Counted from the stretch's first letter, positions 4,001 through 30,966 are shown. The stretch: 64,000 nucleotides of DNA from Escherichia phage vB_EcoM-Pr121LW (MH752840.1); one strand, 5' to 3'. A program made the numbers and translations. The notes: generated by a model from the letters alone, not told the origin.

Positions 4001-4483
4001 AACAACTACGATGGCAACGGGTACCATAAATACGGTTGGTATATTAACAAGAACGGGCATGCCCAATTTATGGATGTGTGGGTGAAAGGCAACATCAACG
4101 CCAGTTCTGGTAACTTCACAGGGGCAGTTAATGCCACCAGTGGTACCTTCCGTGGAGATGTTTATGCCAATAATGGTAGCTTTAGAGGCACCATAGATGC
4201 AACCGGAGGTACATTCCGTGGTCGTGTAGAAGCTTCTGTTATCCGTGCTAACCAGTTCGAAGGTGCAATTGTTGCACACAGGACTTACGGAGATTGTGCT
4301 CCAGTGCATAACTCCCAGCAGAGGGTTTGCCGTTGGAGGTGGAGATACGTAGATAACGTTTCAGGTCAAGGTAAGAACGTAACATTCTTCTTTAAACTGA
4401 ACGGTACTCGTGCCAACTCCCAACTAAATGCGTGGATAGCTGGTCATCAACTCCTTGCTGGCAAGAAGTACGGGAACGGATAA
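1064..4483 (+). CDS. tip attachment / host specificity protein, lambda J-like central tail fibre; 3' end frameshifted by tandem duplication
   Basis: 1139 aa; FN3-like region and segment AKIQVDSHGNKYVAGIQLGMEG...FMVSANNFAVYNP recalled as resembling lambda gpJ; central coiled-coil; G-rich beta-repeat C-terminus. Confidence 0.85.
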   Translation: MPIAMIDNIVASARSSSYDWNASKAALADSLNTVTTRTLDKIFEGNKSYRSQQDRQKLLRSSAAPCSVVYGKTRTSGLLAFLEQDRDRTLHCAIVLANHPLEGIEDILIDGNPISSYGDLVSWELHNDRKTSDPFMGTHCPSWSPDMIGRGISWLRASFKFDPSKFPFGLPNVTLVKVGKKCYDPRISKEVYTNNAALVILDYLRTYLKCPDETINWESFREAANICDEAVKNADGTSERRYTINGEFDMDEAPASIMAEMLKACGADLSYVAGKYGLLVGAYYGPATMTLSEDCVCGEVKIYPEASFDKRSNTITGRFTSPTKGYSETDFPSVFVPEWIEKDGERKIIDIDYRFVTSPYQAQRVSAIFLRRARAGRIIEVTCNMRGFKFKPGRYVTMDLPSIGIVGQEMRVLEWEFTKKGGVKVKLRQDAKEWNDATGQLPDSGDVDIPISPSGVAQPQNFRYSVLQAGEVTHGVLAWDNVGTYAQNIVQVRKNGEIVWTAQTVEQFVRVEGLTKGSYTATVVATSYKGGVSPEAYCEFNIQAPEAPVSVEVKQGYFAITLIPHSRDLASVSTQYDFWTSGMTRLPDTSDVTVTSKATRMGVGSTWTSEGLQNDKIYYWYIRTTNAFGSSAFVECAAHCYTSIEDLMPQIDAEFKKTETYKELTANLDNAVKEMDKNVGAVNDRVTSIFEELGDTIEGVVRETTEKFTGVNGEISALNSKLVAAQQSFDDKLAAESGRLGSLIETTNRSTVDLVNRKTQALSEQITATQGALREELKNTESKLNSSIQETNKATTDLLNKTTEAIKQDLVAATGKITKLEDDVQKEVANLQASIQETNSTTVDLVNNTATAIRQELTSAKQEIVDEMGNIDELRATVSNTSKAVTTLEGKIDAQWGAKIQVDSHGNKYVAGIQLGMEGSGGQVQSYFMVSANNFAVYNPGNGTATLAFAIKNNQAFLKDAFIENGTISSAKIAQEISSNNYDGNGYHKYGWYINKNGHAQFMDVWVKGNINASSGNFTGAVNATSGTFRGDVYANNGSFRGTIDATGGTFRGRVEASVIRANQFEGAIVAHRTYGDCAPVHNSQQRVCRWRWRYVDNVSGQGKNVTFFFKLNGTRANSQLNAWIAGHQLLAGKKYGNG

Positions 4484-4605
4484 CGTTTCAGGTCAAGGTA
4501 AGAACGTAACATTCTTCTTTAAACTGAACGGTACTCGTGCCAACTCCCAACTAAATGCGTGGATAGCTGGTCATCAACTCCTTGCTGGCAAGAAGTACGG
4601 GAACG
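4352..4605 (+). repeat. perfect tandem direct repeat, 2 x 127 bp (4352-4478 and 4479-4605)
   Basis: Both copies identical base for base on manual comparison; junction creates TAA 4481-4483 in J frame. Confidence 0.95.
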
Positions 4606-4790
4606 CCAACGATGGCATGTGTGCAATTGGGATAACAGGTCTAGGTGAACAAACTATAGACATTATTATTGAAATCTACACCCCGTGGTCAACGTCAAAC
4701 GTGACAGGTGTCACAATCTCCTGTCCCACTGTGATCGTTAGTCGTTCTAACTCAAGCTTCCAGGGACCTTGGAACGAGTCTCACGACTAA
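4479..4790 (+). other. displaced out-of-frame C-terminal coding segment of J-like gene
   Basis: ORF track 4455..4790 re-reads repeat copy 2 in the frame J uses in copy 1, then continues 61 codons (ANDGMCAIGITG...NESHD) to TAA 4788-4790. Confidence 0.6.
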
Positions 4791-4797
4791 CCTTTAA

Positions 4798-4826
4798 AGC
4801 CCCGCTTCGGCGGGGTTTATTTTTAT
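4798..4826 (+). terminator. rho-independent terminator, CCCCGC-UUCG-GCGGGG hairpin plus T-run
   Basis: 6-bp GC stem with UUCG tetraloop (4800-4815) followed by TTTATTTTTAT. Confidence 0.7.
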
Positions 4827-4833
4827 GCTCAGA

Positions 4834-4862
4834 TTGACTATTGTTACAAAATTTGGTAAAAT
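4834..4862 (+). promoter_or_regulatory. sigma70-like promoter TTGACT-17-TAAAAT
   Basis: -35 at 4834-4839, -10 at 4857-4862; 33 nt upstream of GTG 4896 with GGAGGA SD. Confidence 0.5.
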
Positions 4863-4895
4863 ACCTTGTAGAGATTTTCATACCGGAGGAGTGAC

Positions 4896-6386
4896 GTGGC
4901 TAAGTATGGATTGACAGAGGCTGGTTTCGTTATACCAACCCTAAATGACCTAATCGTTGAAACTAAGCAAAGCCTGATCCGTGCTTTTGGCGAAAACTTC
5001 AACGTACAGAGTAACTCCGTTGCAGATAAGCTGACCACTATCTTCAACGAGCGAGAGTATCAACTTATTCTTATGGCAGCATCTGTATACGCATCACAGA
5101 CGCTGTATGGGGCAGAAGGTATTTACCTAGACGAACTTCTTGGAAGACGGGGTATTTACCGAAGAGGCCGTTCTAAATCATCAGGTACCTGCCAGTTGAC
5201 GATCAACACAACTGTTCCGTACAATATGATTTACGATTCCAAAACTTATACGTTGGATAGTGGCAACTTTGTTCTTAGCAATGATGTGCAAGTAGCAGGG
5301 AATCTTATTGCTCACAGAATAAATGCTCCAGACCTAAGGATTGGTAAATACAACTTTCAAATTACCAACCAGACAGATGGAAGTATCAAAACAAAAAGTC
5401 TGGTTTTAACAGATAAGGCTCTGGACTCTTCTGATCTGCCAAGCTTTTACGGAGAGATTAAGCAATTCATTGTCGATAATACAACTCTGTTGAACGACGA
5501 TTTGATTCAGATCGATATGTTGACAGGAACGTTGTGGATAGGGTACAATTCGAATCTTGACCAAGTTGGACTTAATAGTAGGGTAGATTTCAGAGTATCC
5601 CCGATTGTAGGGGAAAGAACTATCACCCTAGATGTTATCGCTAACGAGGCTGGTGAGCTGTCAAGAGAGGCAGAAACCGTGACAACAATGTCACCTACTC
5701 CCAGTGGATTTATCAAGCTTACCAACCGAGAAAGATTCAATGAGGGAAGGGATGTTGAGAAAGACTCAGAGTACCGCTTAAGAGCTTCCAGCACAAAACA
5801 GTTAACATCTAAGGCTACCCGTCCTGCAATCCTTAGCGCTGTAAGCGAGGTGAAAGGTGTTGAGAAAGTGAGAGTGTTCTCTAACAATACCGATAAAACT
5901 GATGCTAAAGGTATACCTCCTTACAAGTTCCAAGTGGTTGTGTTTGGTGGTGCAACAGAGGACATTTGCCAAGCACTTTACCAAACTATAGCCTGTACGA
6001 ACAGGACTTATGGTAATATTTTCTACGATGTAACTACATCTGACGGTCAAACTGAAAGAATTTATTATTCCAAGGCAAATACCTACCGCCTGGATGTAAG
6101 AATTACCTACTCCGGTGCTGCGCTTTCCACAACCGAAAAAGATGCCATTGTAGAGGCTCTTTTGCAGGTTGTTAACGGACTGGATGTTGCAGATACGTTG
6201 TACAATATCCAATTGGTCGGTGCTGCATCTGCTGCTGTGTCGATAGGTAGATTTAATAGACTGGTAATTCAAGTTAAACCTGTGGGTGCTTCTGATGAAG
6301 CTTACACTGCAAACGATATTGTTGCAAACATGACCGAGGTGTTTGACCTCGATGAAAGTAATATAACTTTCCAACAAACTATTTAG
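4896..6386 (+). CDS. tail/baseplate structural protein (baseplate J-like candidate)
   Basis: 496 aa, GTG start with GGAGGA SD; position after J; N-terminal pattern loosely like baseplate J family. Confidence 0.5.
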   Translation: MAKYGLTEAGFVIPTLNDLIVETKQSLIRAFGENFNVQSNSVADKLTTIFNEREYQLILMAASVYASQTLYGAEGIYLDELLGRRGIYRRGRSKSSGTCQLTINTTVPYNMIYDSKTYTLDSGNFVLSNDVQVAGNLIAHRINAPDLRIGKYNFQITNQTDGSIKTKSLVLTDKALDSSDLPSFYGEIKQFIVDNTTLLNDDLIQIDMLTGTLWIGYNSNLDQVGLNSRVDFRVSPIVGERTITLDVIANEAGELSREAETVTTMSPTPSGFIKLTNRERFNEGRDVEKDSEYRLRASSTKQLTSKATRPAILSAVSEVKGVEKVRVFSNNTDKTDAKGIPPYKFQVVVFGGATEDICQALYQTIACTNRTYGNIFYDVTTSDGQTERIYYSKANTYRLDVRITYSGAALSTTEKDAIVEALLQVVNGLDVADTLYNIQLVGAASAAVSIGRFNRLVIQVKPVGASDEAYTANDIVANMTEVFDLDESNITFQQTI

Positions 6387-19991: not shown

Positions 19992-20030
19992 GTAAATAAA
20001 AAGGGGCCAAATGGCCCCTTTCTTTTTATA
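19992..20030. terminator. bidirectional rho-independent terminator between convergent operons
   Basis: AGGGGCC-AAAT-GGCCCCT hairpin (20002-20019) flanked by A-run upstream and T-run downstream. Confidence 0.75.
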
Positions 20031-20031
20031 A

Positions 20032-20232
20032 TTAGTAATATTCCCAACACGACCCATCTTCAGACGGCTGGACACGCTTGCCTTCATGATCGACATAGGT
20101 GTAACCGCAACCTTCGCAGATAACAGGTGCCGCATAACCTTCCTTCCACTGATCTTCTGTGATCAATCCTTCCAGATCTCTACAGTTAAAACCAAACAAC
20201 TCTTCAGAACAATCTTTGCAAAAATCAGCCAT
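20032..20232 (-). CDS. small zinc-ribbon protein
   Basis: 66 aa; CxxC…CxxC (CKDC, CEGC). Confidence 0.5.
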   Translation of the reverse strand: MADFCKDCSEELFGFNCRDLEGLITEDQWKEGYAAPVICEGCGYTYVDHEGKRVQPSEDGSCWEYY

Positions 20233-20235
20233 TTC

Positions 20236-20682
20236 TCAGTCCTCGCATTTAACAAATTTTTCTACAGATCCGCCAAGCACAGCTTGTTGCTTGATGGCAC
20301 TTGCTTCATCATAGTGGATAGACTTATGTTCCGTACCTCCAAACTTACCTGTGTGGAAGGTGTGCACCCAAATCTCTTTAGGAAGGGATTTATTCTCTTC
20401 CTCCACCAACTCCCACATACCCCACAAGTGATCTGTGATATCTTTGATGAAATATCCCTCTCCTAGGTTTGTATTCACACTATAGGCCGATTCGTGATTT
20501 CCGCAAATATAACGGAAGGCAGTGTACTCTTTTCCTGGTGTGAAGTGGGTATCCATTAGTATAGCTGTTAAAGAATAAGGGTCTCGAAAGCCCAAGAACT
20601 TTAGTTTAACAATTTCGACATTTACATCTGCAAGATTGTCCATGACGATCTCCTCTGTTTGGTTGGTGAGATAATCATACAT
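20236..20682 (-). CDS. hypothetical protein; candidate 2H phosphoesterase
   Basis: 148 aa; two H-x-T/S motifs (THFT at res 45-48, EHKS at 118-121) about 73 residues apart. Confidence 0.5.
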   Translation of the reverse strand: MYDYLTNQTEEIVMDNLADVNVEIVKLKFLGFRDPYSLTAILMDTHFTPGKEYTAFRYICGNHESAYSVNTNLGEGYFIKDITDHLWGMWELVEEENKSLPKEIWVHTFHTGKFGGTEHKSIHYDEASAIKQQAVLGGSVEKFVKCED

Positions 20683-20807
20683 AGATCTGATGTTAGGGTC
20701 AAGCTTAATTTTAAACTATTTTGGAGAGGTATTTTGTTCAGGAGGGTAATCACATAGGATAGGGCAATTTATGAAGGCACAGGCCTCTTTTGAGGCCTTA
20801 AAATCGA

Positions 20808-21188
20808 TTATGACACTTTGACGTAGCGCTCCGACAGAGCTGGAAAGCCAAAAGCAGTACCTATACTACCGTATGCTACCCACCATTGAAGTTCATCGTG
20901 ACACCATTTTCCGATCAGGAAGGTGCTGGGGTAGCGGGTCAGTATTTTGGCATAAGCTTTAGGGTCTGCATCCTCTGGGATAATGATGCTTGGAACATCT
21001 TTGTTATGACCACAGCAGCAGTTTAGAGTTTTCAGTCCTGCCGCCCATAGACTCATGATAGGCTTAGCCATGCACTTATCAAGGCACACACGTTTTTTGC
21101 CGTCTCGAAGTTTTTTAGGCACATCAACGATAACATTTGGATGCTTGGCACCTTTCACTTTCCAATTATAGGATTTACACTTGCACAT
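20808..21188 (-). CDS. Cys-rich hypothetical protein
   Basis: 126 aa; multiple Cys clusters (CKC, CLDKC, CCCGHN). Confidence 0.5.
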   Translation of the reverse strand: MCKCKSYNWKVKGAKHPNVIVDVPKKLRDGKKRVCLDKCMAKPIMSLWAAGLKTLNCCCGHNKDVPSIIIPEDADPKAYAKILTRYPSTFLIGKWCHDELQWWVAYGSIGTAFGFPALSERYVKVS

Positions 21189-21221
21189 CGTTTAATCAGT
21201 CTCCATCTAGAAAGCAATACT

Positions 21222-21392
21222 TTACTTAAAATCTTTGTCACCTATTACGATTGCACGAATCCACTCATTGTGATGTTCAATGGCGGTAAGGTGTAACATA
21301 ATGTAGTGATTGTCATTACTAAACACGGTGCGGTAAGCTTTAGCAGCACCATGATATAACTTCCACATCAGGTAATGATATCTTCGCCTCAT
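21222..21392 (-). CDS. small hypothetical protein (not in ORF track)
   Basis: 56-codon ORF; ATG 5 nt downstream of HAD gene stop; GGAG SD on minus strand. Confidence 0.25.
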   Translation of the reverse strand: MRRRYHYLMWKLYHGAAKAYRTVFSNDNHYIMLHLTAIEHHNEWIRAIVIGDKDFK

Positions 21393-21397
21393 GGCTC

Positions 21398-21868
21398 TTA
21401 CTCCGGTTCAGGATCTGGGTAATCTTCAATAATAAAGGTCCATCCGTTCCGCTTAGCCTCAGACTTATACTCAATCTCCTTCATTGCGAACTCTAACTGA
21501 TTTTTAGCCGGAATACATGCCGGAGAATCATCAATCCAAATATCCGGGTAGATATCAAACTGCGCCAGATAGGCTGCCTTCTGAACACCGCCAGTATAAA
21601 ACACACCAACATCGAGCTCCTTGCGCCAATACTCAATGTCCACGTTGTCTTGAGTGATGAATCGGGAAGTCACAAGGTATACTGTCCACCCTTCCTTTTT
21701 CAAGTCCCTAATCAGGCGGGAGAAGATGAAAGGACTCGCATTAAATGTTCCATCAAAGTCAATGGCAATGATGTGTGTGCCGTGGCGAGTCTCGTATGGA
21801 TTGCTTGTGGTAAGATTACTGTAGTTAAAAGGAACTTCTTCCCCGCAGTAGCTGTAGTCCATATTCAC
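21398..21868 (-). CDS. HAD-superfamily phosphatase (nucleotidase-like)
   Basis: 156 aa; HAD motif I IIAIDFDGTF, motif II VYLVTSR, motif IV IWIDDSP. Confidence 0.65.
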   Translation of the reverse strand: MNMDYSYCGEEVPFNYSNLTTSNPYETRHGTHIIAIDFDGTFNASPFIFSRLIRDLKKEGWTVYLVTSRFITQDNVDIEYWRKELDVGVFYTGGVQKAAYLAQFDIYPDIWIDDSPACIPAKNQLEFAMKEIEYKSEAKRNGWTFIIEDYPDPEPE

Positions 21869-22140
21869 ACCTTCTCGTTGATAAATTTACGGGCGGTTTG
21901 GTGAGTTGTTTCTGCTGTCTTCAGAATGATATTAATTTTATTGTCAAGATCATTCATCTCTGCAGTTAATTCAGGAATCTCTCCAGCATGCATAGTGAAA
22001 TCATACATAGACATGCCCAGAATCTCATTGATGCGACGGTTGCATTCTGCAGCACGCTGGTTCATTTTCCAAGCTAACACCAAAGCCTCCTGCGTAGCCT
22101 CTAGTGCAAAATCTAATACGTCTGCCTCTTCTTTCGTCAT
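21865..22140 (-). CDS. hypothetical protein
   Basis: 91 aa; overlaps downstream gene start by 4 nt. Confidence 0.45.
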   Translation of the reverse strand: MTKEEADVLDFALEATQEALVLAWKMNQRAAECNRRINEILGMSMYDFTMHAGEIPELTAEMNDLDNKINIILKTAETTHQTARKFINEKV

Positions 22141-22198
22141 CTCAGTCTCTCCTGTTGTATTGTTGGTAGGTGTATGAATACCTTATAACTCACCTTTT

Positions 22199-22765
22199 TT
22201 ATTCAAACTGCAATAGTAAGTCCACCACCGCGCTAGGTCTGTCAACAAATTCCCCAGGTCCACATGCCCACAGAGGGTATCCGTCCACATACCGCCAAAT
22301 CCAACCTGCAGTGTGGAGTTCGAGCAGGGCAGTACCGTCCTTACTGTCAACCACTCTTTCCCACAGTGTTGGGCAGCGAAGCTTGAGAATCGGATCACCT
22401 CCCTTATACCCGTCCATGTAGATACCTATTGCAAAGTTCAGCATCATCTTTTTGTGCACTGATCTCTTACTGAGGGTGCTCATCACTTCCTCTTTGTGAA
22501 TGTTTGTAAGCTTCTCTTTGGCTACCCGCAGATCGTTGCAACCATTGTTCAGCAGATCTTCCAGACACTTGATCCGGAGGTCGTGAATGTCTTTGTCGTG
22601 TACCGTTGGCACAGGGTCGTAGCGGTATAGCACTGTTGATACAAGGTTGCTCGGGTGTGGGTCTGACAGCAACCCATAACCCCAATACTCTTCTGTATCT
22701 GAAAGGACAAGACACCCAATGTCTCTGTCAAGCTTTCCTGTGTTGTAAGCCACATTGACCGCCAT
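22199..22765 (-). CDS. hypothetical protein
   Basis: 188 aa; longest ORF in interval, consistent operon strand. Confidence 0.5.
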   Translation of the reverse strand: MAVNVAYNTGKLDRDIGCLVLSDTEEYWGYGLLSDPHPSNLVSTVLYRYDPVPTVHDKDIHDLRIKCLEDLLNNGCNDLRVAKEKLTNIHKEEVMSTLSKRSVHKKMMLNFAIGIYMDGYKGGDPILKLRCPTLWERVVDSKDGTALLELHTAGWIWRYVDGYPLWACGPGEFVDRPSAVVDLLLQFE

Positions 22766-22767
22766 GA

Positions 22768-23013
22768 CTATAGCTCCACTAGCAAAGTGCTTTCAAAGTG
22801 CCGTTCATGCAGACCGTTGTAAGGGACCACTTCCACAACACCATCACGGACATACGGGGCCATCATCGTGGTATAATCTCCAAACGGGTTGGTATTGTCA
22901 CTAACCACAACCACCTTCTGCCCTTCCTTAGCAGAGTGCCAAATAGATCTACACTTCATCAGGTGTTCGAGAGCTCCAGGTAAAATTTTGTTACGTTCTT
23001 TACGGGTCTTCAT
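22768..23013 (-). CDS. hypothetical protein
   Basis: 81 aa; tight packing with neighbours. Confidence 0.45.
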   Translation of the reverse strand: MKTRKERNKILPGALEHLMKCRSIWHSAKEGQKVVVVSDNTNPFGDYTTMMAPYVRDGVVEVVPYNGLHERHFESTLLVEL

Positions 23014-23459
23014 AACAGATATAGCTCCTTATGAAAGTGGTCTTTTAATTTCTCACTGAGAAACTTCTTGATACCTTCCTCTAAAGTGTTTTCGATGTAG
23101 TCCAGCTTAACTGCTTCGATGGACATATCATAGATTGCCAGCTCTAAGCTGTCAAGTCCCATCATAGCATGAACCATAAGATTTTCATCTTCAGATACAT
23201 TCAGGGGACTTCCTATAACATCTGGAGGCAGAATAGTTTCCCAATTATTCTGGGTGGTAGTTCTCCCGCCATCTACTTTACGGCGCAGTTCGAATGTGTT
23301 CTTAGTGTAGAACACTTCATAAGAAACGATACGACTGTCACTCTCATAATAAACGAAGTTCAGGTAGGAGCCTAGCCGCAGTCGGCAAACTTCTACCCCA
23401 AACCATTGTTTCTTATAAGAATTCAGGCTAATGCTGTCGCATTCACGCTTGCTCAACAC
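23010..23459 (-). CDS. hypothetical protein
   Basis: 149 aa; 4-nt overlap with downstream gene. Confidence 0.5.
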   Translation of the reverse strand: MLSKRECDSISLNSYKKQWFGVEVCRLRLGSYLNFVYYESDSRIVSYEVFYTKNTFELRRKVDGGRTTTQNNWETILPPDVIGSPLNVSEDENLMVHAMMGLDSLELAIYDMSIEAVKLDYIENTLEEGIKKFLSEKLKDHFHKELYLL

Positions 23460-23475
23460 GGCTATCTCCTTTTTG

Positions 23476-23709
23476 TTAATCTTCGTAAATCAGGATTTCT
23501 GCTTTAGGTTTTCGTGCTTTCAAGTCCAGCTCTATCCAGTGCACCATGGCTGTTTCAAGAAAAACAGCTTGGATGCATCCGTCCTCAGCGTGCCCCACCA
23601 ACATAACAAGATCTTCACCTTCATCATCTGCATCACGAACATACAGAATCTCTCCAGATTCAAAGTCTTTCACAACCTGATTGCTGGATAATTTACGAAT
23701 TTTTGCCAT
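23476..23709 (-). CDS. hypothetical acidic protein
   Basis: 77 aa. Confidence 0.45.
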   Translation of the reverse strand: MAKIRKLSSNQVVKDFESGEILYVRDADDEGEDLVMLVGHAEDGCIQAVFLETAMVHWIELDLKARKPKAEILIYED

Positions 23710-23710
23710 A

Positions 23711-23974
23711 TCAGAAACCCTCTAAAAAGCTCTTGTAGAAAATAATTTCAGTGTCCACACCTGTCACGATCTTATCGTTTCGGATCTCATCTGTGAGGTA
23801 GGTATCGAAACGTAGTACTTGTGTGGTATTGTCACACATCCACTCAGCTGTGACCATAGCGAAAATCTTAGCATCTTCATTATCTGGTGTGAATGTTACC
23901 ACCTCGCCGCATTTAAACTTTTCGATAGGTTGTGTGTTAGCTTTCGGTTCTGCAATAGTGATTTTCGTGGTCAT
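23711..23974 (-). CDS. hypothetical protein
   Basis: 87 aa. Confidence 0.45.
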   Translation of the reverse strand: MTTKITIAEPKANTQPIEKFKCGEVVTFTPDNEDAKIFAMVTAEWMCDNTTQVLRFDTYLTDEIRNDKIVTGVDTEIIFYKSFLEGF

Positions 23975-24234
23975 TGCTCTTCCTCCATAGTTTCACCAAA
24001 TACTTCGATACGAGCATCGAGCTCGGTTGCTTTCAGCTCCCCAACAAAATATTTTAGTTCTTTCTCGTCCAGATCGTAAGCCCACACACAAGAAGAACAT
24101 GCCACAATCAGTAGCGTAGATACACGACCTGGCTCTGTGATCATGCTCACAATGGTTCCCACAGGGAACGTGTTGATAGCTTTTTTAACTGGGCGTTCAG
24201 CTTTAATTACTACCTCTGTTGCCATAAATAACAT
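23971..24234 (-). CDS. hypothetical protein
   Basis: 87 aa. Confidence 0.45.
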   Translation of the reverse strand: MLFMATEVVIKAERPVKKAINTFPVGTIVSMITEPGRVSTLLIVACSSCVWAYDLDEKELKYFVGELKATELDARIEVFGETMEEEQ

Positions 24235-24240
24235 CCTCTC

Positions 24241-25722
24241 TTACTTAGCGTACTCGATTAATTCCACAGTTTTACCAAAGCTAGGGATATAATTTTTATT
24301 ATACCCTTCGGTTAGAACCCATAAAGTATCGTACTTTTTCCACTTGTTGTCAACAGCCTTTTGTTCAAAGTTATGCTCAAAGTATAGGTCGGTCAGGACG
24401 ATGACATCTTTTGCATTCGGTATGTTAGCATCCAGATACTCGAACACGCAAGCAGCTGTTGTGCCCCATGTTGAGTGGACCTCATAGTTGATCATCTCGT
24501 CTATGTTGCCGCGAGTGTATACTTTAACCTCTCCAACCTCAGTTGACCAACAGAACATTGTAACCTTAAACTCTTTATACAGATTGCACAATCCTGTGAT
24601 TTCATTGAACATTTTCTTTAAAGTTCTTTGAGAGATCGAGCCAGAAACGTCCAAAGCCACCACAATATCTATAGTGTTTTCCGGATTACGACCAGGAACA
24701 ATAACGTGTTGGTTCTTGTTTATAGCTCCGACTTTTCGCATTGTGCTGGTCAAAGACCCAGATCGGCGACCAGGTTTTCTGTAGGTCAGTTCGGCCTTTC
24801 TTTTAGACAACATACGCTGCTTGATGATGTCTATATAATTGATTACAGGCTTACCTCTATTCTTGACAAACTCACGAACCGCCTCAGGGCAACGACCTCC
24901 GGAAGCTTGCATTGCTGCCTCAAGCATGTCACCAGAGTCCTGCATGGCCTGATCTTTATCAGATTGGCTGATTACAGGTTGTGGCTGATCATACCCCATC
25001 GCCTTTCCAAGATCATCACTAGTGCCACCGTTACCACTCATGTGATCGTCGGTTTGTCGTTTATCTCCTTGAGAGTTCTCGCCTTTACCGCTCTTACTTT
25101 TACCGTTATTCTGATCTCTTTGCTTATCAAGAACTGCATAAACGTTCTCAGCAATCCATCCATGAAACTTCATGTCGCAGTAGCAGCTGGCTAAGAAGCC
25201 AAAAGGCTTACCTTTCACGAACGTAGTGCTTTTCCCCTTCGGGAAGAAAACACAAGGAGGTTTGCTAAAGTCAACCACAAGGCCTGTGTTGATAACGTGA
25301 TCACAAGCAATATTGAACAGTTCCGGCTCAAAGCTTTTACCACGGACCAGGTGATCACAGATAATATGCCCCACCTCATGTGACAGAAGGAAGGCCACCT
25401 CTTTCACAGATTTTGGGGAATAGAAAACTTCAGCCATCTCAAACTGCTCGTCAGTTAGAGAAGCCTTAAGAATAGCCTTGCGTTCATCAGCCAATCCCAT
25501 AATGAACTCAGGACTGTAATAGATGCGTTTATGGTCGGTTGCCATGGTGGAGCACCATGTGTGGTTTTCTACGAACTGCAACCCTGACAGTAGTGTGCCA
25601 TAAAACGGCAGCTTTTCAAGGAGATACATACGTGCAGCCTGCAACATTCTCAGGGCATCATCTTTCTGTGAGGTAATGATTTCTGAACTTCTGCTATCCA
25701 TTAAAACTCCAGAAGGGGCCAT
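24241..25722 (-). CDS. VWA-domain protein with N-terminal HExxH metallopeptidase-like domain
   Basis: 493 aa; HEVGHIICDH zinc-binding motif; MIDAS-type VVALDVSGSIS in C-terminal half. Confidence 0.8.
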   Translation of the reverse strand: MAPSGVLMDSRSSEIITSQKDDALRMLQAARMYLLEKLPFYGTLLSGLQFVENHTWCSTMATDHKRIYYSPEFIMGLADERKAILKASLTDEQFEMAEVFYSPKSVKEVAFLLSHEVGHIICDHLVRGKSFEPELFNIACDHVINTGLVVDFSKPPCVFFPKGKSTTFVKGKPFGFLASCYCDMKFHGWIAENVYAVLDKQRDQNNGKSKSGKGENSQGDKRQTDDHMSGNGGTSDDLGKAMGYDQPQPVISQSDKDQAMQDSGDMLEAAMQASGGRCPEAVREFVKNRGKPVINYIDIIKQRMLSKRKAELTYRKPGRRSGSLTSTMRKVGAINKNQHVIVPGRNPENTIDIVVALDVSGSISQRTLKKMFNEITGLCNLYKEFKVTMFCWSTEVGEVKVYTRGNIDEMINYEVHSTWGTTAACVFEYLDANIPNAKDVIVLTDLYFEHNFEQKAVDNKWKKYDTLWVLTEGYNKNYIPSFGKTVELIEYAK

Positions 25723-25729
25723 TGGCCCC
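25713..25729 (-). promoter_or_regulatory. hairpin AGGGGCC-AAT-GGCCCCT spanning SD and start codon of VWA gene
   Basis: Near-identical to the bidirectional terminator palindrome at 20003-20019; start codon of 24241..25722 lies in the loop/stem. Confidence 0.35.
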
Positions 25730-25734
25730 TGTCA

Positions 25735-26775
25735 TTATTTAACGTGTTTGAAAATACCTGCCAACTCGGTCATTGTCATGCGGGTGGTCTTCATAAGATC
25801 TGTCATAGCTTTCTCCATAATTGGAGATACTACCATAAAGTTTCCTTTAGTGAAACCTTTATTCCAGTCGGTCACCAACAGTGGTTTAAGTCCAGCTCCG
25901 AGACGTTCACCAGTTAAAGCACAGCATTTGCGAATATACGAACTCTTAAATTGGCTGAACGACAGATCAACTTTCATACCTGCATCGTAGAACGTTTGAC
26001 AATAGAAAGTGTAAGCCTTAGCAATCTCAACATCATCAGGCAGTGCAGGAACCTCTTCTGCAATCCCCTCTTCGACCTCCTGAGGCTCTTTTTCCTCTTC
26101 AGAGTTCTGTTCTTCAACTTCTTCTGTCACAGTCTCGTTCACGATGTCTGAAATGTGTTTGTTGGCTGCACGATCAGCCATGAAATTTTTAAAGTCCTGC
26201 ATTGGTGACATATCTTCTTCCTCTTCGTCAAATAGTGCTAGTTTATCTTCTTCTGTCCCGTATTGCAAGATGAAATCTTCAAAAGTATAATCACCTTTCA
26301 ATTTCTCCATACGCTCTTCGCTCAGGTGGAGCATCATCTGCTGGACAATTTTTCGATCAGTTTTGTCTTTAATCAGGATTGCAGTCTTTTTATCTACCAG
26401 ACAGTCTTTCAGAGCATTGCACCTCAACCCTACCACACAACAATTGTCAATTGCGTAAGGACCTTCATCATCTATACGCTCCAAAGATGGGTAGAAAGGA
26501 TTTCCCAGCCCGTTTTCATCTGTGTGCATGTCAAAAGGTATAAGGGTATAGTCGCATACTCCATCTCCTAAAAGTTTTTTACCAAATAGGAGGTATTCTT
26601 CCCATGACAGGTTGAACTCTATATCTCGTTTCCGTGCATTATTCTGTTTGCGTCTATATTTTTTAAGCAGGCGCTCTAACTCTTCTGGTGTATAATATTT
26701 TTCAAGATTCATGCGTTGTCTCTCGTGCTCTGTAAGTGAAGAAATCGTATCAATTGTTTCAATAGATGTCAACAT
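25735..26775 (-). CDS. hypothetical protein with acidic linker
   Basis: ORF track 25735..26778 (TTG); ATG 26775 preferred; acidic EEEEDMSP/EEVEEQNSEEEKE stretch; first gene of minus operon. Confidence 0.55.
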   Translation of the reverse strand: MLTSIETIDTISSLTEHERQRMNLEKYYTPEELERLLKKYRRKQNNARKRDIEFNLSWEEYLLFGKKLLGDGVCDYTLIPFDMHTDENGLGNPFYPSLERIDDEGPYAIDNCCVVGLRCNALKDCLVDKKTAILIKDKTDRKIVQQMMLHLSEERMEKLKGDYTFEDFILQYGTEEDKLALFDEEEEDMSPMQDFKNFMADRAANKHISDIVNETVTEEVEEQNSEEEKEPQEVEEGIAEEVPALPDDVEIAKAYTFYCQTFYDAGMKVDLSFSQFKSSYIRKCCALTGERLGAGLKPLLVTDWNKGFTKGNFMVVSPIMEKAMTDLMKTTRMTMTELAGIFKHVK

Positions 26776-26785
26776 CAAAAACGTG

Positions 26786-26814
26786 TTGACTTTACTCTAA
26801 ATCTCCGATATAGT
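26786..26814 (+). promoter_or_regulatory. sigma70-like promoter TTGACT-17-TATAGT
   Basis: -35 at 26786-26791, -10 at 26809-26814, in the divergent intergenic region 41 nt upstream of ATG 26855. Confidence 0.6.
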
Positions 26815-26854
26815 GCACCCATTCGAAAGAAAACTAACATAGGAGCACTTACTT

Positions 26855-27754
26855 ATGGCAAATCTTAACAGTTTTAGTACGCGGTGGAAACAGGACATAA
26901 CAACCAATCTTTCAGCTGGGGACATCCTTTCTGCAATTTACGAGGCTTTAGATGATAAAGCTACTTCAAAAGCGGTTTGTACCAACCCACTAATTCCTGT
27001 AGTGATGAAGGTTATTGAGCGTAGATTGGTATCTGGGTCTGATAAGTGGACATATTTAGATAATGAAGGACACACCTATTCCAATGGGTATGTCGATATA
27101 AAAGTAGAATACGCGGTATCATACCGCCGGAGCGGTTCTGTAACTTTCAACTTCTCTGGAGGTTTTCGATCTCTGGCTACCTCACCTTTTGTTTCCTCAG
27201 AGGAGAAGTATGAGCTGCCATTTCTTTGGATGATGGCTAACGCGACAGGAAAAACCCCCGTTAGCATCCGAGTAAAATACAACTACAACGGATCTAGTAA
27301 GATCTATGCCGAAAGTGTCTCAGCAAGTTTTTATTTTGTGATGGGGGATGGAATCCTCAAACATATAAAGATGTGCGATATGCATGATGTTATAAATGAA
27401 GTGACTGATAAGAATGTTCTAGTGAAAGACCTCAACAATTTTTATACACCCGGAGACTATTACGTCAGCCGTCCACTGTGCATCTTTAATGCCGCACACC
27501 CTCTAGGTGAGTATTTGATCGCCAATAGCGATATTGCCAATAACCGCTTCGAGGTAGCAAGAGTTCAGAATGAGGTATTGACATCTTGCAAGAGCGGTGA
27601 TACGTTTACCGAAGAAGAGATGGGTGTTTTAGAAATGATGGGATATAAGTGTAGCCTTTGGGTAGATGAGGTGTTTAATGATTGCATCTATGGACAGGAT
27701 ATTTACCCATTAAAGAAGTATACTGATACAAGTTTAATTTATGCGAGGGTTTGA
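26855..27754 (+). CDS. hypothetical protein
   Basis: 299 aa; AGGAG SD; first gene of + strand early operon. Confidence 0.55.
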   Translation: MANLNSFSTRWKQDITTNLSAGDILSAIYEALDDKATSKAVCTNPLIPVVMKVIERRLVSGSDKWTYLDNEGHTYSNGYVDIKVEYAVSYRRSGSVTFNFSGGFRSLATSPFVSSEEKYELPFLWMMANATGKTPVSIRVKYNYNGSSKIYAESVSASFYFVMGDGILKHIKMCDMHDVINEVTDKNVLVKDLNNFYTPGDYYVSRPLCIFNAAHPLGEYLIANSDIANNRFEVARVQNEVLTSCKSGDTFTEEEMGVLEMMGYKCSLWVDEVFNDCIYGQDIYPLKKYTDTSLIYARV

Positions 27755-27756
27755 CT

Positions 27757-28029
27757 ATGATGAAGGCATGTGGTAATGTATATTACGTCGGTGAACATGT
27801 TCAGGCAGACAGTGTGTGGAAATCTATTAAGTCCACCACTGACGATGCCTTTCTGAGTGGACTATGTTTCCCCAATCCGGGAGACATCCTCCCTCATCCT
27901 GGAGATTTTGTTGTCAACAAGATGGACGGTTATACCGTGTGCCTGATGGTTGAAAAAATCTTTTTAGACACTAGACACAATCACCGTCTTGTGTTAAAAT
28001 TTCAAGAATGTAAAATGACAATTGCCTAA
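27757..28029 (+). CDS. hypothetical protein
   Basis: ORF track 27751 (TTG); ATG 27757 with GAGGG SD. Confidence 0.5.
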   Translation: MMKACGNVYYVGEHVQADSVWKSIKSTTDDAFLSGLCFPNPGDILPHPGDFVVNKMDGYTVCLMVEKIFLDTRHNHRLVLKFQECKMTIA

Positions 28030-28042
28030 GGAGACCTTACCG

Positions 28043-28399
28043 ATGTCTAAAGTTACTTATCGTGCAGCTATTTACTGCAATGAACACCCAATCAATAATG
28101 ATGGTCACTGCCTTTTCAAAGAAAATCAGTTGGGATGTATTGTCCTCCCTGATGAAGGGGAAGGTTATCTGATTGCATTAACAGGGTTTGAGCCTGAAGC
28201 TTTGGAAGCCAATCTGGACTACCTGGTAGAAGAGGGTGCTGCAGACCTGGTTGCCAATGGCTTCCCCGTAAGCCTTGACGAAGTGGAGCGCTTCATGGGC
28301 AATTACCGTGTAGTGCGTGAGTTTACTATCGAGGTGGAAACTCCAGAGTGGGGCAGCCATGAAACTAATGCCGAAGAAAAAGAAGAGGGGGTAGAATAA
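28043..28399 (+). CDS. acidic hypothetical protein
   Basis: ORF track 28022; ATG 28043 after AAGGAG; Asp/Glu-rich. Confidence 0.5.
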   Translation: MSKVTYRAAIYCNEHPINNDGHCLFKENQLGCIVLPDEGEGYLIALTGFEPEALEANLDYLVEEGAADLVANGFPVSLDEVERFMGNYRVVREFTIEVETPEWGSHETNAEEKEEGVE

Positions 28400-28656
28400 T
28401 GAAAGTGCAGATCTTGACTAATGCCGAGAAGATGTTTATCGAAGATACACCTTTTGAAGCTGGTGAGCTACAGTTCGTTTATTTTGTTGACTTAGATAAG
28501 GTGTTCCCTGCACTGAATCTGGGTCTGGATGAAGTTCCTCATAAGGTTTTGTGCCAAGTTGTTCGTGCATTAGCGGCAGATGGAGAGTTCCACACCCTTC
28601 AAGATGTCCAGACCTACGGGTATCTTGAACTACAACGAGAAGAAGAGGTGGACTGA
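28399..28656 (+). CDS. acidic hypothetical protein
   Basis: 85 aa; ATG overlaps upstream stop. Confidence 0.5.
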   Translation: MKVQILTNAEKMFIEDTPFEAGELQFVYFVDLDKVFPALNLGLDEVPHKVLCQVVRALAADGEFHTLQDVQTYGYLELQREEEVD

Positions 28657-28658
28657 TA

Positions 28659-29039
28659 ATGGCCCGGTGGAAGACAACAATTGACCTGCATGATCAGTGG
28701 TTAGGACGCATCACTGAAGACGGGAAACTAGTGGAGTGGGACAATAAGCATGTTAGCGAGTTGGCAAGCATTGTGGCTGGCAAGTTACGCTCCAAGTTCC
28801 CTGAACAACTGGATCCTGATAATTCAAAGTTCGATCCTGAGTTGGAGGATGTTGTATACTACTTCGATACCGTGGATGACTACGATGCGTGGTTTGCAGC
28901 ACGGGAGCTTTACCCACAAGGCTCTGCTATGCGCCAGATGGAAGAAGATTATCCTCCGTGCGAGCAATTTAATAGCGCAATGACTTGCCTCTACGATTGG
29001 GCAGATAAGAACCTTGTCTGGATTCGGACTGCATTTTAG
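28659..29039 (+). CDS. acidic hypothetical protein
   Basis: 126 aa. Confidence 0.5.
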   Translation: MARWKTTIDLHDQWLGRITEDGKLVEWDNKHVSELASIVAGKLRSKFPEQLDPDNSKFDPELEDVVYYFDTVDDYDAWFAARELYPQGSAMRQMEEDYPPCEQFNSAMTCLYDWADKNLVWIRTAF

Positions 29040-29083
29040 TGGGCAGGAATGGCGGCAAGGATGCTGCTTAAGGAGTAGTAGAG

Positions 29084-29353
29084 ATGTTATACCAGCAATA
29101 TGAACTTCGTGCAGAAAAAGAGTTAAATTTTGACAAAGATATTCACAGATATTATTATGGGAAAGTTAGAGGGCAAGCAAGAAAGTGTACTCCAACACTC
29201 TTTTATGCCAGCAGACGACTAGCGCCAGAAGAGGCAACAGCAGAAAGGGTTGCGTACAACTGGAGAGTCACGTATGATATTGACAGATCCGATGTGATAT
29301 CTGTTTTGGAAAACTTTGAAAACACTTACACACAAGTAGAGGACTTTTACTAA
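29084..29353 (+). CDS. hypothetical protein
   Basis: 89 aa; GGAG SD. Confidence 0.5.
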   Translation: MLYQQYELRAEKELNFDKDIHRYYYGKVRGQARKCTPTLFYASRRLAPEEATAERVAYNWRVTYDIDRSDVISVLENFENTYTQVEDFY

Positions 29354-30537
29354 TGTCAAGAAACGTATTTGAAAGTGGTCAAATCACTGTCCGTGAGTTG
29401 CCAGCTATCATTCAGTTTGCCCAGCGTCATAACCGATCTGTCCTGATTTTAGGACCAATGGGCGTGGGAAAGAGCCAAGTGATGAAGCAGATCGCCGATA
29501 ATATGTTCGGTGAGCGAGATGATAACTTGGTTGACGTGCGACTGTCAGATAAAGATCCTGCCGACTTATCTGGGCTACCTATCCCTGTAGAAGCGGATGG
29601 AACTACACGTACAGTATTTGCAATTCCAGAATTTTGGCCTGCGGATCCTGACTGGAGCGGAATTATCTTTCTGGATGAGCTCACTCATGCAGATAACTAC
29701 CTGCAAAAGGTTGCAATGCAAATTATGCTCGACCACAAGTGCGGTACCTATGCATTCCCTAAGGGTTCTGTTTTTGTGGCTGCTGGTAACCGTTCTACAG
29801 ATGGTGCGGTTCTTTCGGCGCTCGAAGCCCCTCTGGCTAACCGTTTTATCATTGTAGAAGTTACAAGCAATGCAGAGGTGTTTATTGAGGACTACGCATT
29901 CCTTAATGGGGTGCACTCCTCTGTAATTGGATATCTGAAAAGAGTTCCATCAGCTATCGATAATTATGAGGCCATGGCTGAGATTAATTGTCCATCTTTT
30001 GCCACACCACGATCTTGGGTTGCTGCATCTGATATCTTGCACGATTTTGACAGCGGTATTATTTCTGACGCTATGGCCCGTGTTCTTCTGCAAGGTGCTA
30101 TCGGTCACACTGCAGCGGTAGAGATCTGGACTTACCACACCAAGAAACGCAACTTACCGGAAATCGGTCGGATTATGGCAGGAGGTTGCAAAGAATATGT
30201 AGGTCCTAAACAGCCAGACATCTTGTGGATTCTTGGATCTGAAGGCTGTATCGCTATTCGTAATATGATGGAAAATGCAAGTATCTCCGACGAAGATCTT
30301 GTTAGCTGTGTGGCAAACTTCCTCGATTTCCTTTGGGAAAACTTCAAGGACGAGAACCGAGATTTTGTATTCTCGGTCTTTATGGCGATGATGAAACCTA
30401 ATGCCTTAGGAAATGCCTTGCTTATCGGTAAAGGTCGTGACAAGATTGTTGCTCAGCTGATCAAAGCATACCCAAACCTGATGAAGATTGTAAAAGAGTT
30501 TGGTGAAGAGTTTAGCGCCATTTTGGCTAAAGCTTAA
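29353..30537 (+). CDS. AAA+ ATPase, MoxR/AAA_5-like
   Basis: 394 aa; Walker A LILGPMGVGKSQ; Walker B IIFLDELTHA; sensor region AAGNRSTDG. Confidence 0.8.
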   Translation: MSRNVFESGQITVRELPAIIQFAQRHNRSVLILGPMGVGKSQVMKQIADNMFGERDDNLVDVRLSDKDPADLSGLPIPVEADGTTRTVFAIPEFWPADPDWSGIIFLDELTHADNYLQKVAMQIMLDHKCGTYAFPKGSVFVAAGNRSTDGAVLSALEAPLANRFIIVEVTSNAEVFIEDYAFLNGVHSSVIGYLKRVPSAIDNYEAMAEINCPSFATPRSWVAASDILHDFDSGIISDAMARVLLQGAIGHTAAVEIWTYHTKKRNLPEIGRIMAGGCKEYVGPKQPDILWILGSEGCIAIRNMMENASISDEDLVSCVANFLDFLWENFKDENRDFVFSVFMAMMKPNALGNALLIGKGRDKIVAQLIKAYPNLMKIVKEFGEEFSAILAKA

Positions 30538-30546
30538 GGAGGTTGT

Positions 30547-30927
30547 ATGGCTAAAGTAGGTAAGCGGGGGAACTACCTGGTGATATTGACCGAGGAGCCG
30601 GAGAAGGAGTATGAATGCAGCTCCACTTGCGTGATCGATATCCGAGAAAAAGATGTAGATGAAATCTGGTTTAAAATATTGGACGCTTGCGATAGCAGTG
30701 ATTATTTCTTCATCTATGTCAACGATAAGGCTGGGTTCTTCCATGACGACGGAGAGTTGCCGTATGAAATCTATGAACTTGTAGAGGCTTGCCATCGTGG
30801 AGATGCGGAGTTGTTTGGCTTACGGCTGAAAAGCGGTAAATTCTTCTATCAAGATGAGTGCATGAATCTTCATAACTTTGTAGAGGGAACTTGCAACGAT
30901 GGAGAGATTTTGGCACACTACGATTAA
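30547..30927 (+). CDS. hypothetical protein
   Basis: 126 aa; AAGGAGG SD. Confidence 0.5.
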   Translation: MAKVGKRGNYLVILTEEPEKEYECSSTCVIDIREKDVDEIWFKILDACDSSDYFFIYVNDKAGFFHDDGELPYEIYELVEACHRGDAELFGLRLKSGKFFYQDECMNLHNFVEGTCNDGEILAHYD

Positions 30928-30937
30928 TTTCTAAGAC

Positions 30938-30966
30938 CACCCCGCTTCGGCGGGGATTTTCTATTT
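30938..30966 (+). terminator. rho-independent terminator, CCCCGC-UUCG-GCGGGG hairpin
   Basis: Same hairpin core as 4800-4815, followed by ATTTTCTATTT. Confidence 0.7.

Follow-up and report, generated by a model that had tools for sequence, protein, structure and literature searches.

A split MoxR-type ATPase and VWA/zincin-like gene pair in a Vequintavirus: a conserved phage module that may act in counter-defence

Do two phage proteins that resemble an ATPase and its adaptor work together when their genes lie kilobases apart on opposite strands, and what would such a pair do for the phage? The question is raised by a 6.3-kb interval (positions 24241 to 30537) in the 64,000-nucleotide stretch of Escherichia phage vB_EcoM-Pr121LW (MH752840.1) analysed here. 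This whole stretch, referred to as the window, belongs to a Vequintavirus (rV5-like E. coli myovirus). On the minus strand the interval encodes a protein joining an HExxH metallopeptidase-like domain to a VWA domain, and on the plus strand a MoxR-type AAA+ ATPase. An initial annotation, made from the sequence alone, had proposed that the two are partners and that their divergent transcription could mean coordinated expression from a shared control region. Comparative evidence strongly suggests that the proteins form a functional pair, and published transposon data suggest that they help the phage against a bacterial defence, not in particle assembly. We put at roughly 60% the probability that the two act jointly in an accessory pathway of host adaptation or counter-defence.

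Both open reading frames (ORFs) were present exactly as initially described, at 24241-25722 (minus strand, 493 amino acids (aa)) and 29353-30537 (plus strand, 394 aa). The four quoted motifs, HEVGHIICDH, DVSGS, GPMGVGKS and IIFLDE, translate as quoted, and the separation, given as about 3.6 kb, is 3651 bp. The figure of 493 aa stands as the length of the longest minus-strand ORF, from ATG 25722. The protein itself is probably 486 aa long and begins at ATG 25701, because this codon follows a GGAG at 5 bases and 486 aa is also the length of the GenBank orthologues and of the 90%-identity cluster P0121. The in-frame upstream ATG 25722 sits within a 7-bp G+C hairpin, in its loop and stem. The two genes and their main elements are as follows, with orthologues in Escherichia phage Bas54 (bas54_ numbers) and phage N4.

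24241..25701, minus strand: zincin-like plus VWA gene, 486 aa from the probable start ATG 25701; orthologue of bas54_0055 and N4 gp25
24760..25440, minus strand: DUF2201_N, putative metallopeptidase domain, residues 95-321 in the 493-aa numbering
25351..25380, minus strand: HEVGHIICDH (HExxHxxxxH), putative zinc site with H115, E116, H119 and H124, from translation
24259..24666, minus strand: VWA (DUF2201) domain, residues 353-488
24637..24651, minus strand: MIDAS DxSxS motif (DVSGS, D358-S362), from translation; the other MIDAS residues are T421 and D445
29353..30537, plus strand: MoxR-type AAA+ ATPase, 394 aa; orthologue of bas54_0063 and N4 gp24
29452..29475, plus strand: Walker A, GPMGVGKS, from translation
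29662..29679, plus strand: Walker B, IIFLDE, from translation

The combination of a zincin-like domain and a MIDAS-bearing VWA domain proposed for the minus-strand protein was borne out. In Pfam, PF13203 (DUF2201_N; E = 3.4e-28, 99.4 bits against a cutoff of 23.2) is followed by PF09967 (DUF2201, VWA-like; E = 3.6e-11, 43.7 bits against 26.4), in that order and both above threshold. The protein also matched phrog_1314 in PHROGs at 5e-123. Across 49 aligned homologues from phages and bacteria, reaching down to 21% identity, the sole invariant columns of the N-terminal domain were H115, E116, H119, H124, A139 and D141 (HExxHxxxxH…AxD). Those of the VWA domain were D358, S360, G361, S362, G420, T421 and D445, a complete MIDAS. 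The HExxH motif and third metal ligand of zincin metallopeptidases are therefore present and conserved, and the C-terminal part has the Rossmann-like VWA fold, its fold matches including NorD in complex with NorQ. A direct PDB sequence search with the VWA protein returned no match. Profile matches of the N-terminal domain, to the minimal zincin MJ1213 and to M48 peptidases, were weak and lay around the HExxH helix; the putative peptidase assignment rests on the conserved motif. Ahead of this helix lies an insertion of ~35-40 aa (~35 in this phage), common to other sequences of at least 35% identity (the Vequintavirinae type).

This family carries conflicting labels in public records. Its annotation as 'HNH endonuclease', attached to phrog_1314 and to many GenBank records, found no counterpart in Pfam: no HNH family was matched at E ≤ 0.01, and DUF2201_N and DUF2201 fill the whole length. 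The label looks like an annotation error, and it has spread to GenBank/RefSeq phage records that include S-TIM5 gp056, Atu_ph07 gp263, Murica and ECP2309. Other records of the DUF2201 family are labelled 'anti-sigma factor', 'tail protein' or 'DNA repair ATPase'. Mislabelled loci of the family include 24241-25722 (minus strand) of the window, and 3964-5112 and 4254-5543 in two of the loci compared below (L090 and L091, respectively).

For the plus-strand protein, the MoxR/AAA_5 assignment held by homologues, motifs and a profile match to midasin, and failed on the protein's own Pfam scores, which are given below with the other points that count against our interpretation. The protein matched phrog_1297 in PHROGs at 1e-110. 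Its homologues at 31-35% identity (E ~1e-45) are annotated, some of them weakly, as AAA_3, AAA_5 and sometimes PF20030 (bpMoxR). Invariant in 46 ATPase homologues were G37, G39, K40, S41, D108, E109, N146, R147, R164 and R220, which cover Walker A, Walker B, the sensor-1 region (N146/R147) and arginines. When the family profile was searched against PDB, midasin came first (E = 2e-10), and the closest folds were AAA+ modules of the MoxR/dynein/midasin clade. A direct PDB sequence search gave only P-loop-level matches to Clp and p97, and NCBIfam and PADLOC gave no meaningful family. The AlphaFold2 monomer model reached a pLDDT of 85. Relative to environmental homologues of ~360 aa (85% coverage), the window ATPase is ~35-40 residues longer, mostly at the C-terminus. 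By analogy with CbbQ and NorQ, we infer that it forms a hexameric ring with ATPase activity.

A strong argument that the two proteins belong together came from their linkage in other lineages. Eighty IMG/VR loci were fetched with the ATPase profile, 70 of which were informative; nine were not, as they end within ~180 bp of the ATPase gene. One further contig (L037), a candidate for an ATPase without a VWA partner, was likewise uninformative: a 340-aa ORF with a CxxxCxxC radical-SAM-like motif (2961-3983) directly follows the ATPase gene, and the contig then ends. A DUF2201 gene was present in all informative loci (70/70) and lay on the ATPase strand in 68. Among these 68, 66 start within 270 bp of the ATPase ORF, one overlaps it and one (L083) follows after a gap of 517 bp, so that adjacency amounts to 67 of 70 loci, or 68 if L083 is counted. 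Two environmental phage contigs with a 35%-identical ATPase, for example, carry a DUF2201_N plus DUF2201 gene immediately downstream. The order ATPase then VWA was also found in cyanophage S-TIM5, in the 490-kb jumbo phage Atu_ph07 and on the Sulfurivermis fontis chromosome, and N4 gp24 (AAA) and gp25 (vWFA) are the same pair, the vWFA gene being one of 14 N4-like core genes. A tblastn search of 50,697 phage records detected the ATPase in 812 and the VWA protein in 670; by host genus the counts are nearly the same (ATPase/VWA: Escherichia 213/211, Pseudomonas 108/104, Pectobacterium 26/26, Cronobacter 17/17). Identities of the MoxR and VWA proteins to the window copies drop in parallel, through 99.7/99.6, 53/43, 35/35, 34/24-27 and 26/23%.

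Only two of the 70 loci had the genes on opposite strands, Vequintavirus (-3.6 kb) and Mydovirus BIS47 (-3.8 kb). A search for the same split pair in related phages, as the initial annotation had proposed, thus found it in these two genera; elsewhere the genes are mostly adjacent and on one strand. In Certrevirus CB7, of the same subfamily, the ATPase and VWA genes are co-directional with an HNH gene in between. As judged from this comparison, the divergent split is a derived rearrangement of an ancestral ATPase-VWA operon, confined to Vequintavirus and Mydovirus. Since it is derived and lineage-confined, and Certrevirus is still co-directional, the partnership does not have its basis in the divergent layout. 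Independent same-strand splits that keep both genes were found in PA5oct (~3 kb; 234123-239156) and in a Vibrio Dorisvirus (6.2 kb). The latter, Vibrio phage 1.097.O (11798-19975 of locus L094), had been a candidate ATPase-only lineage until the whole record showed its DUF2201 gene on that strand as well, 6.2 kb downstream; the insertion between the two comprises SPFH/Band 7, Nmad5, cold-shock and GIY-YIG genes. We also considered a precise excision of a VWA gene from in front of the 126-aa ORF at 30547-30927 of the window, and rejected it, as this ORF has no similarity to the 126-aa ORF that follows the VWA gene in Certrevirus CB7 (E = 0.44).

What the pair does is best approached through a published fitness screen. 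The HIDEN-SEQ preprint (10.1101/2025.11.20.689424) reports saturating transposon mutagenesis of Bas54 (Escherichia phage MaxBurger), whose bas54_0063 and bas54_0055 are identical to the window ATPase and VWA protein at 393/394 and 479/486 positions, with the same gene order and spacing; they are orthologues with no material difference from the window pair. On E. coli K-12 both genes were classed as non-essential, with 60/64 and 81/86 TA sites hit, respectively. Resampling of K-12 against the clinical strain CFE311 gave a log2 fold change (log2FC) of -7.23 (adjusted p = 0) for the ATPase gene and of -2.20 (adjusted p = 0.009) for the metallopeptidase gene (10.1101/2025.11.20.689424). On CFE311 the remaining eight genes within or next to the interval (bas54_0056-0062 and 0064) were all neutral. 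These comprise the 'anti-sigma factor' (log2FC -0.08), the 'fucosyltransferase', five small ORFs, among them the orthologue bas54_0062 of the 89-aa ORF preceding the ATPase gene, and the ORF after the ATPase. According to the preprint, bas54_0063 and bas54_0140 are needed against DS-28 of CFE311, and deletion of the MoxR ATPase is reported as sensitive to cloned DS-28 (text to Fig. 4e; 10.1101/2025.11.20.689424). DS-28, a two-gene system from DefensePredictor, joins a hypothetical protein to a nuclease of the HEPN family and was found only on plasmids in an E. coli isolate survey. The preprint contains no discussion of the VWA/peptidase gene or of a link to the ATPase. In Extended Data Table 8, the sheet 'resampling_K-12_vs_CFE303' (S6) has a command line and numbers identical to those of the CFE311 sheet (S7), and the depletion figures are thus for the CFE311 comparison alone. 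A term search of a CRISPRi-ART study (SUSP1, T4, T5, PTXU04) returned nothing on this pair.

The depletion of these two genes amid neutral neighbours is what would be expected of two genes serving one conditionally required pathway. Together with the same-strand linkage elsewhere, the parallel divergence and the retention of both genes after splits, it upholds the proposal of a functional MoxR-VWA pair. An alternative is that the proteins took on independent functions after the split, the ATPase working alone or with, for example, bas54_0140, and the VWA/peptidase having a separate or decaying role. The genes do lie apart on opposite strands, their CFE311 effect sizes are far apart (-7.2 against -2.2), and the counter-defence genes against DS-28 named by the preprint are bas54_0063 and bas54_0140. 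Because the effect on the VWA gene is much weaker, there is room for partial independence. Yet the split is old, being shared by Vequintavirus and Mydovirus (53/43% identity), and all catalytic and MIDAS residues have stayed intact; the 6.3-kb arrangement is retained in 114 of 121 related records; the other independent splits keep both genes; and the VWA gene, unlike its neighbours, is significantly depleted on the same host. Full independence is, in our judgement, unlikely.

The same screen bears on the one role that has been proposed for this architecture. Iyer et al. 2021 (PMC7824862) described, in jumbo phages of group 2.2, a MoxR ATPase and a vWA protein bearing a metallopeptidase domain at its N-terminus; they called this chaperone-cochaperone pair 'previously unrecognized' and proposed that it acts in virion assembly with peptidolytic processing, folding or assembling structural proteins and cutting them. 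That proposal concerns exactly the domain combination seen here, and a MoxR-vWA pair has been shown to act in tail development of Acidianus two-tailed virus. The vWFA gene is core in N4-like phages, and in S-TIM5 (L090, 2477-5112) an Hsp20 small heat-shock gene lies directly 5' of the pair on the same strand, which hints at a proteostasis context in that lineage, with gp054, 'virion structural protein and packaging', two genes past the VWA gene. Set against this, Bas54 tolerates insertions at ~94% of TA sites in both genes and at none in the portal, capsid, sheath and tube genes, which argues against an essential assembly role in this phage. Moreover, the genes of the window sit in an early/host-takeover region, with 'anti-sigma factor', rIIA and rIIB genes, flanking a putative sigma-70-type divergent promoter and remote from the structural module. 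Their neighbours in other phages are genes of replication and nucleotide metabolism (5'-3' exonuclease, thymidylate synthase), and a separate prohead protease (bas54_0006) exists. We therefore regard a virion-assembly chaperone as a quite improbable description of the pair here.

A further possibility is suggested by the closest solved folds, those of CbbQ, a Rubisco activase, and of NorQ, which serves iron insertion into NO reductase; each of the two works through a VWA partner. The pair might be a cofactor-insertion or enzyme-activase module of the NorQD, CbbQO or CobST type, serving some metalloenzyme that the phage or its host uses in nucleotide or DNA metabolism, with the defence phenotype secondary. 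Many phages have the pair beside thymidylate synthase, MazG, radical-SAM-like or exonuclease genes, and in the bacterium a ferrochelatase gene lies downstream of the pair, separated from it by a single unannotated gene. The HExxH domain, however, has no counterpart in CbbO, NorD or CobT, no enzyme neighbour is constant across lineages, the screen shows no growth defect on K-12 in rich medium, and no metabolic enzyme was found by Pfam among the neighbours in the window. An activase role thus appears very unlikely.

CbbQ-CbbO and NorQ-NorD, of the MoxR CGN subfamily, nonetheless share with the phage pair the same logic of an AAA+ ring with a MIDAS adaptor. The model of the window VWA protein aligns to NorD of NorQD complexes, at ~18-20% identity only; CbbO and NorD lack a zincin domain, their clients (Rubisco and NO reductase) are absent here, and their genes are cellular and operonic. 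By this analogy, the joint counter-defence or host-adaptation action that we favour would have the two genes encode two halves of one conserved phage machine. The 394-aa protein would be the ATP-driven ring and the 486-aa protein its adaptor, docking through the C-terminal VWA domain, whose MIDAS metal site could grip an acidic residue of a target protein. The ring would then remodel the captured client with ATP, and the N-terminal zincin-like domain might cut the remodelled target. By the published data the ATPase is needed for growth on a host that carries DS-28, the VWA/peptidase contributes on the same natural host, and both genes are dispensable on laboratory E. coli; the module would be an accessory device. 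The client could be a protein of the defence, a factor of the host, or a protein of the phage itself that sets off defence when misfolded. Linkage, domain make-up, residue conservation and the published phenotypes stand as shown; physical interaction of the two proteins, peptidase activity, the nature of the target and a share of the VWA protein in the DS-28 effect are what we infer. Burst size on a laboratory host, which the initial annotation had named as an assay, would probably be uninformative, because both genes are non-essential on K-12.

Several points weigh against this account. The pair is known here from its genes and one published fitness screen. For the ATPase, all AAA families fell below the Pfam gathering threshold (AAA_5 16.7 bits against a cutoff of 22) and AAA_3 gave no match. 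Profile and fold searches of PDB returned no solved structure related to the N-terminal domain, and we found no report in the literature of peptidase activity in any DUF2201_N member. On CFE311 the VWA gene is depleted ~4.6-fold, against complete loss for the ATPase gene. The result with cloned DS-28 covers the ATPase deletion, and the evidence for the VWA gene is depletion on the whole strain; this strain is unlike K-12 in many respects, and 27 genes came out as significant there, tail-fibre genes among them. In the preprint it is bas54_0140, and not the peptidase, that is grouped with the ATPase (10.1101/2025.11.20.689424). Counter-defence may also be an indirect outcome of a chaperone role for another phage protein.

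A bolder version goes one step further. The MoxR ring and the VWA-zincin adaptor could together be a two-chain ATP-dependent protease, in which the MIDAS recognises a host immunity protein, here the DS-28 HEPN nuclease or its partner, and the machine unfolds and cleaves it. We consider this version speculative and unlikely. If true, it would represent an energy-dependent, proteolytic mode of counter-defence and a broad, unrecognised class of anti-immunity machine in N4-like phages, jumbo phages, Vequintavirinae and some cyanophages, and it would answer the long-open question of the role of N4 gp24/gp25. The FtsH-type AAA+ zinc proteases, which couple AAA+ unfolding to an HExxH zincin, offer the same proposed logic by analogy only: FtsH has both activities in one chain, belongs to another AAA+ clade and to peptidase family M41, is membrane-anchored and lacks a VWA domain or MIDAS.

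Among other known systems, the jumbo-phage group 2.2 and N4 gp24-gp25 pairs have the same architecture (DUF2201_N, DUF2201 and an AAA_5-type ATPase), and homology of jumbo-phage, N4-like and S-TIM5 proteins to those of the window was detectable by tblastn. The jumbo/N4 genes are adjacent, whereas those of this phage are 3.6 kb apart on opposite strands, and the assembly role proposed for the jumbo pair fits poorly with non-essentiality in Bas54. In E. coli, RavA and ViaA are reportedly a MoxR ATPase and VWA cofactor that are encoded together and are accessory, being conditionally important. RavA has a LARA domain and belongs to another MoxR subfamily, ViaA lacks a peptidase domain, and PDB searches gave no significant match to either. 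A virus-encoded MoxR-vWA chaperone pair is that of Acidianus two-tailed virus, as cited by Iyer et al. 2021 (PMC7824862). This is an archaeal virus whose pair lacks a peptidase domain and has a role in tail development, and it is likened to the present pair by description. Its two proteins are presumably p618 and p892.

We further examined whether the pair could be expressed in concert. The surrounding features are these.

25714..25730, minus strand: 7-bp G+C hairpin, AGGGGCC-AAU-GGCCCCU, between the stop of the upstream gene and the VWA start
25735..26712, minus strand: promoter-proximal gene of the leftward unit, GenBank 'anti-sigma factor', phrog_3118; context, outside the pair
26713..26854, no strand: divergent intergenic region with back-to-back sigma-70-like promoters, from consensus matches
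26855..27754, plus strand: gene labelled 'putative (alpha) 1-3 fucosyltransferase' in relatives
29084..29353, plus strand: 89-aa ORF with its stop codon overlapping the start of the ATPase (TAATG)
30940..30955, plus strand: terminator-like hairpin CCCCGC-TTCG-GCGGGG with a T-rich tract, one gene past the ATPase

The neighbouring leftward gene starts at ATG 26712, not at TTG 26778, and the divergent gap is therefore 26713-26854 (142 bp). Within it, the divergent promoter expected between the genes was found as a back-to-back pair of sigma-70-like consensus matches: rightward, TTGACT (26786-26791), a 17-bp spacer and TATAGT (26809-26814); leftward, TTGACA (26772-26767), a 17-bp spacer and TACGAT with a TG before it. 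Together the -35 boxes make up a palindrome, GTCAACA…TGTTGAC. These elements are kept in five Vequintavirus sequences, which is little informative at 93% overall identity. Single promoter-like matches are weak evidence, because 35 such sites were seen in 13.5 kb against 24 ± 5 expected. Neither gene of the pair is promoter-proximal, the VWA gene being second in the leftward unit and the ATPase gene seventh in the rightward one, and co-regulation from the shared region is possible as read from these matches. Nothing usable was found in the literature on Vequintavirus transcription timing or virion proteomics.

The hairpin at 25714-25730 folds in its 54-nt context at -18 kcal/mol (z = -2.25) and could be an attenuator or an RNA processing or stability element; on the plus strand it was flagged as terminator-like. 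The TAATG overlap suggests translational coupling of the 89-aa ORF and the ATPase. Inside that ORF, at 29130-29158 (plus strand), TTGACA and TATTAT stand 17 bases apart, an 11/12 sigma-70-like match that is the joint best of the 13.5-kb scan, tied with one on the minus strand at 23155-23127; it is possibly an internal ATPase promoter, or chance. The hairpin at 30940-30955 would terminate the rightward unit one gene after the ATPase.

Phages SophiaRose, MaxTheCat and others match the 6.3-kb interval at 98% identity, a single match spans at least 80% of it in 114 of the 121 matching records, and close relatives label the two genes 'putative metallopeptidase' and 'ATPase / MoxR ATPase' in GenBank. 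Sixteen 'Campylobacter phage' records (MG065644-MG065682; host C. jejuni) match E. coli Vequintavirus at ~97% identity along the full 6.3 kb, and their C. jejuni host assignment looks doubtful. GC and AT skew are negative across the leftward gene block (~20000-26800) and return to positive at the divergent gap, a flip that coincides with the strand switch; the remaining 64-kb window is plus-strand coded with positive skew. The family of the 'anti-sigma factor' (25735-26712), phrog_3118, is labelled HNH endonuclease in PHROGs. The protein is very acidic in its middle segment and has no Pfam match; its weaker PHROG matches are to the T4 Srd anti-sigma factor, sigma-70 decoy and endonuclease VII families. 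The 'fucosyltransferase' (26855-27754, plus strand) had no Pfam match at E ≤ 0.01 and falls into phrog_12338, of unknown function; its annotation appears unsupported. Two 87-aa ORFs adjoining the VWA gene, considered as tandem paralogues, share no similarity.

Parts of this picture were already known, namely the gene annotations, the architecture in the literature and, in the preprint, the counter-defence role of the ATPase. New here are the derivation of the split pair from a near-universal operon, the finding that both genes outlast several independent splits, a depletion of the VWA partner on which the published screen does not comment, and the start-codon and annotation corrections. The divergent arrangement that first drew attention is of minor interest, as a natural experiment in which the pair survives separation. 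The module itself is one of the commoner pairs of phage genes without an assigned role, and Vequintavirus offers a tractable handle on it, with laboratory-dispensable genes and a defined restrictive condition (DS-28 or CFE311). Joint action and a target, if shown, might uncover a counter-defence mechanism powered by ATP and would give a function to hundreds of genes now annotated as 'hypothetical', 'HNH endonuclease' or 'ATPase'.

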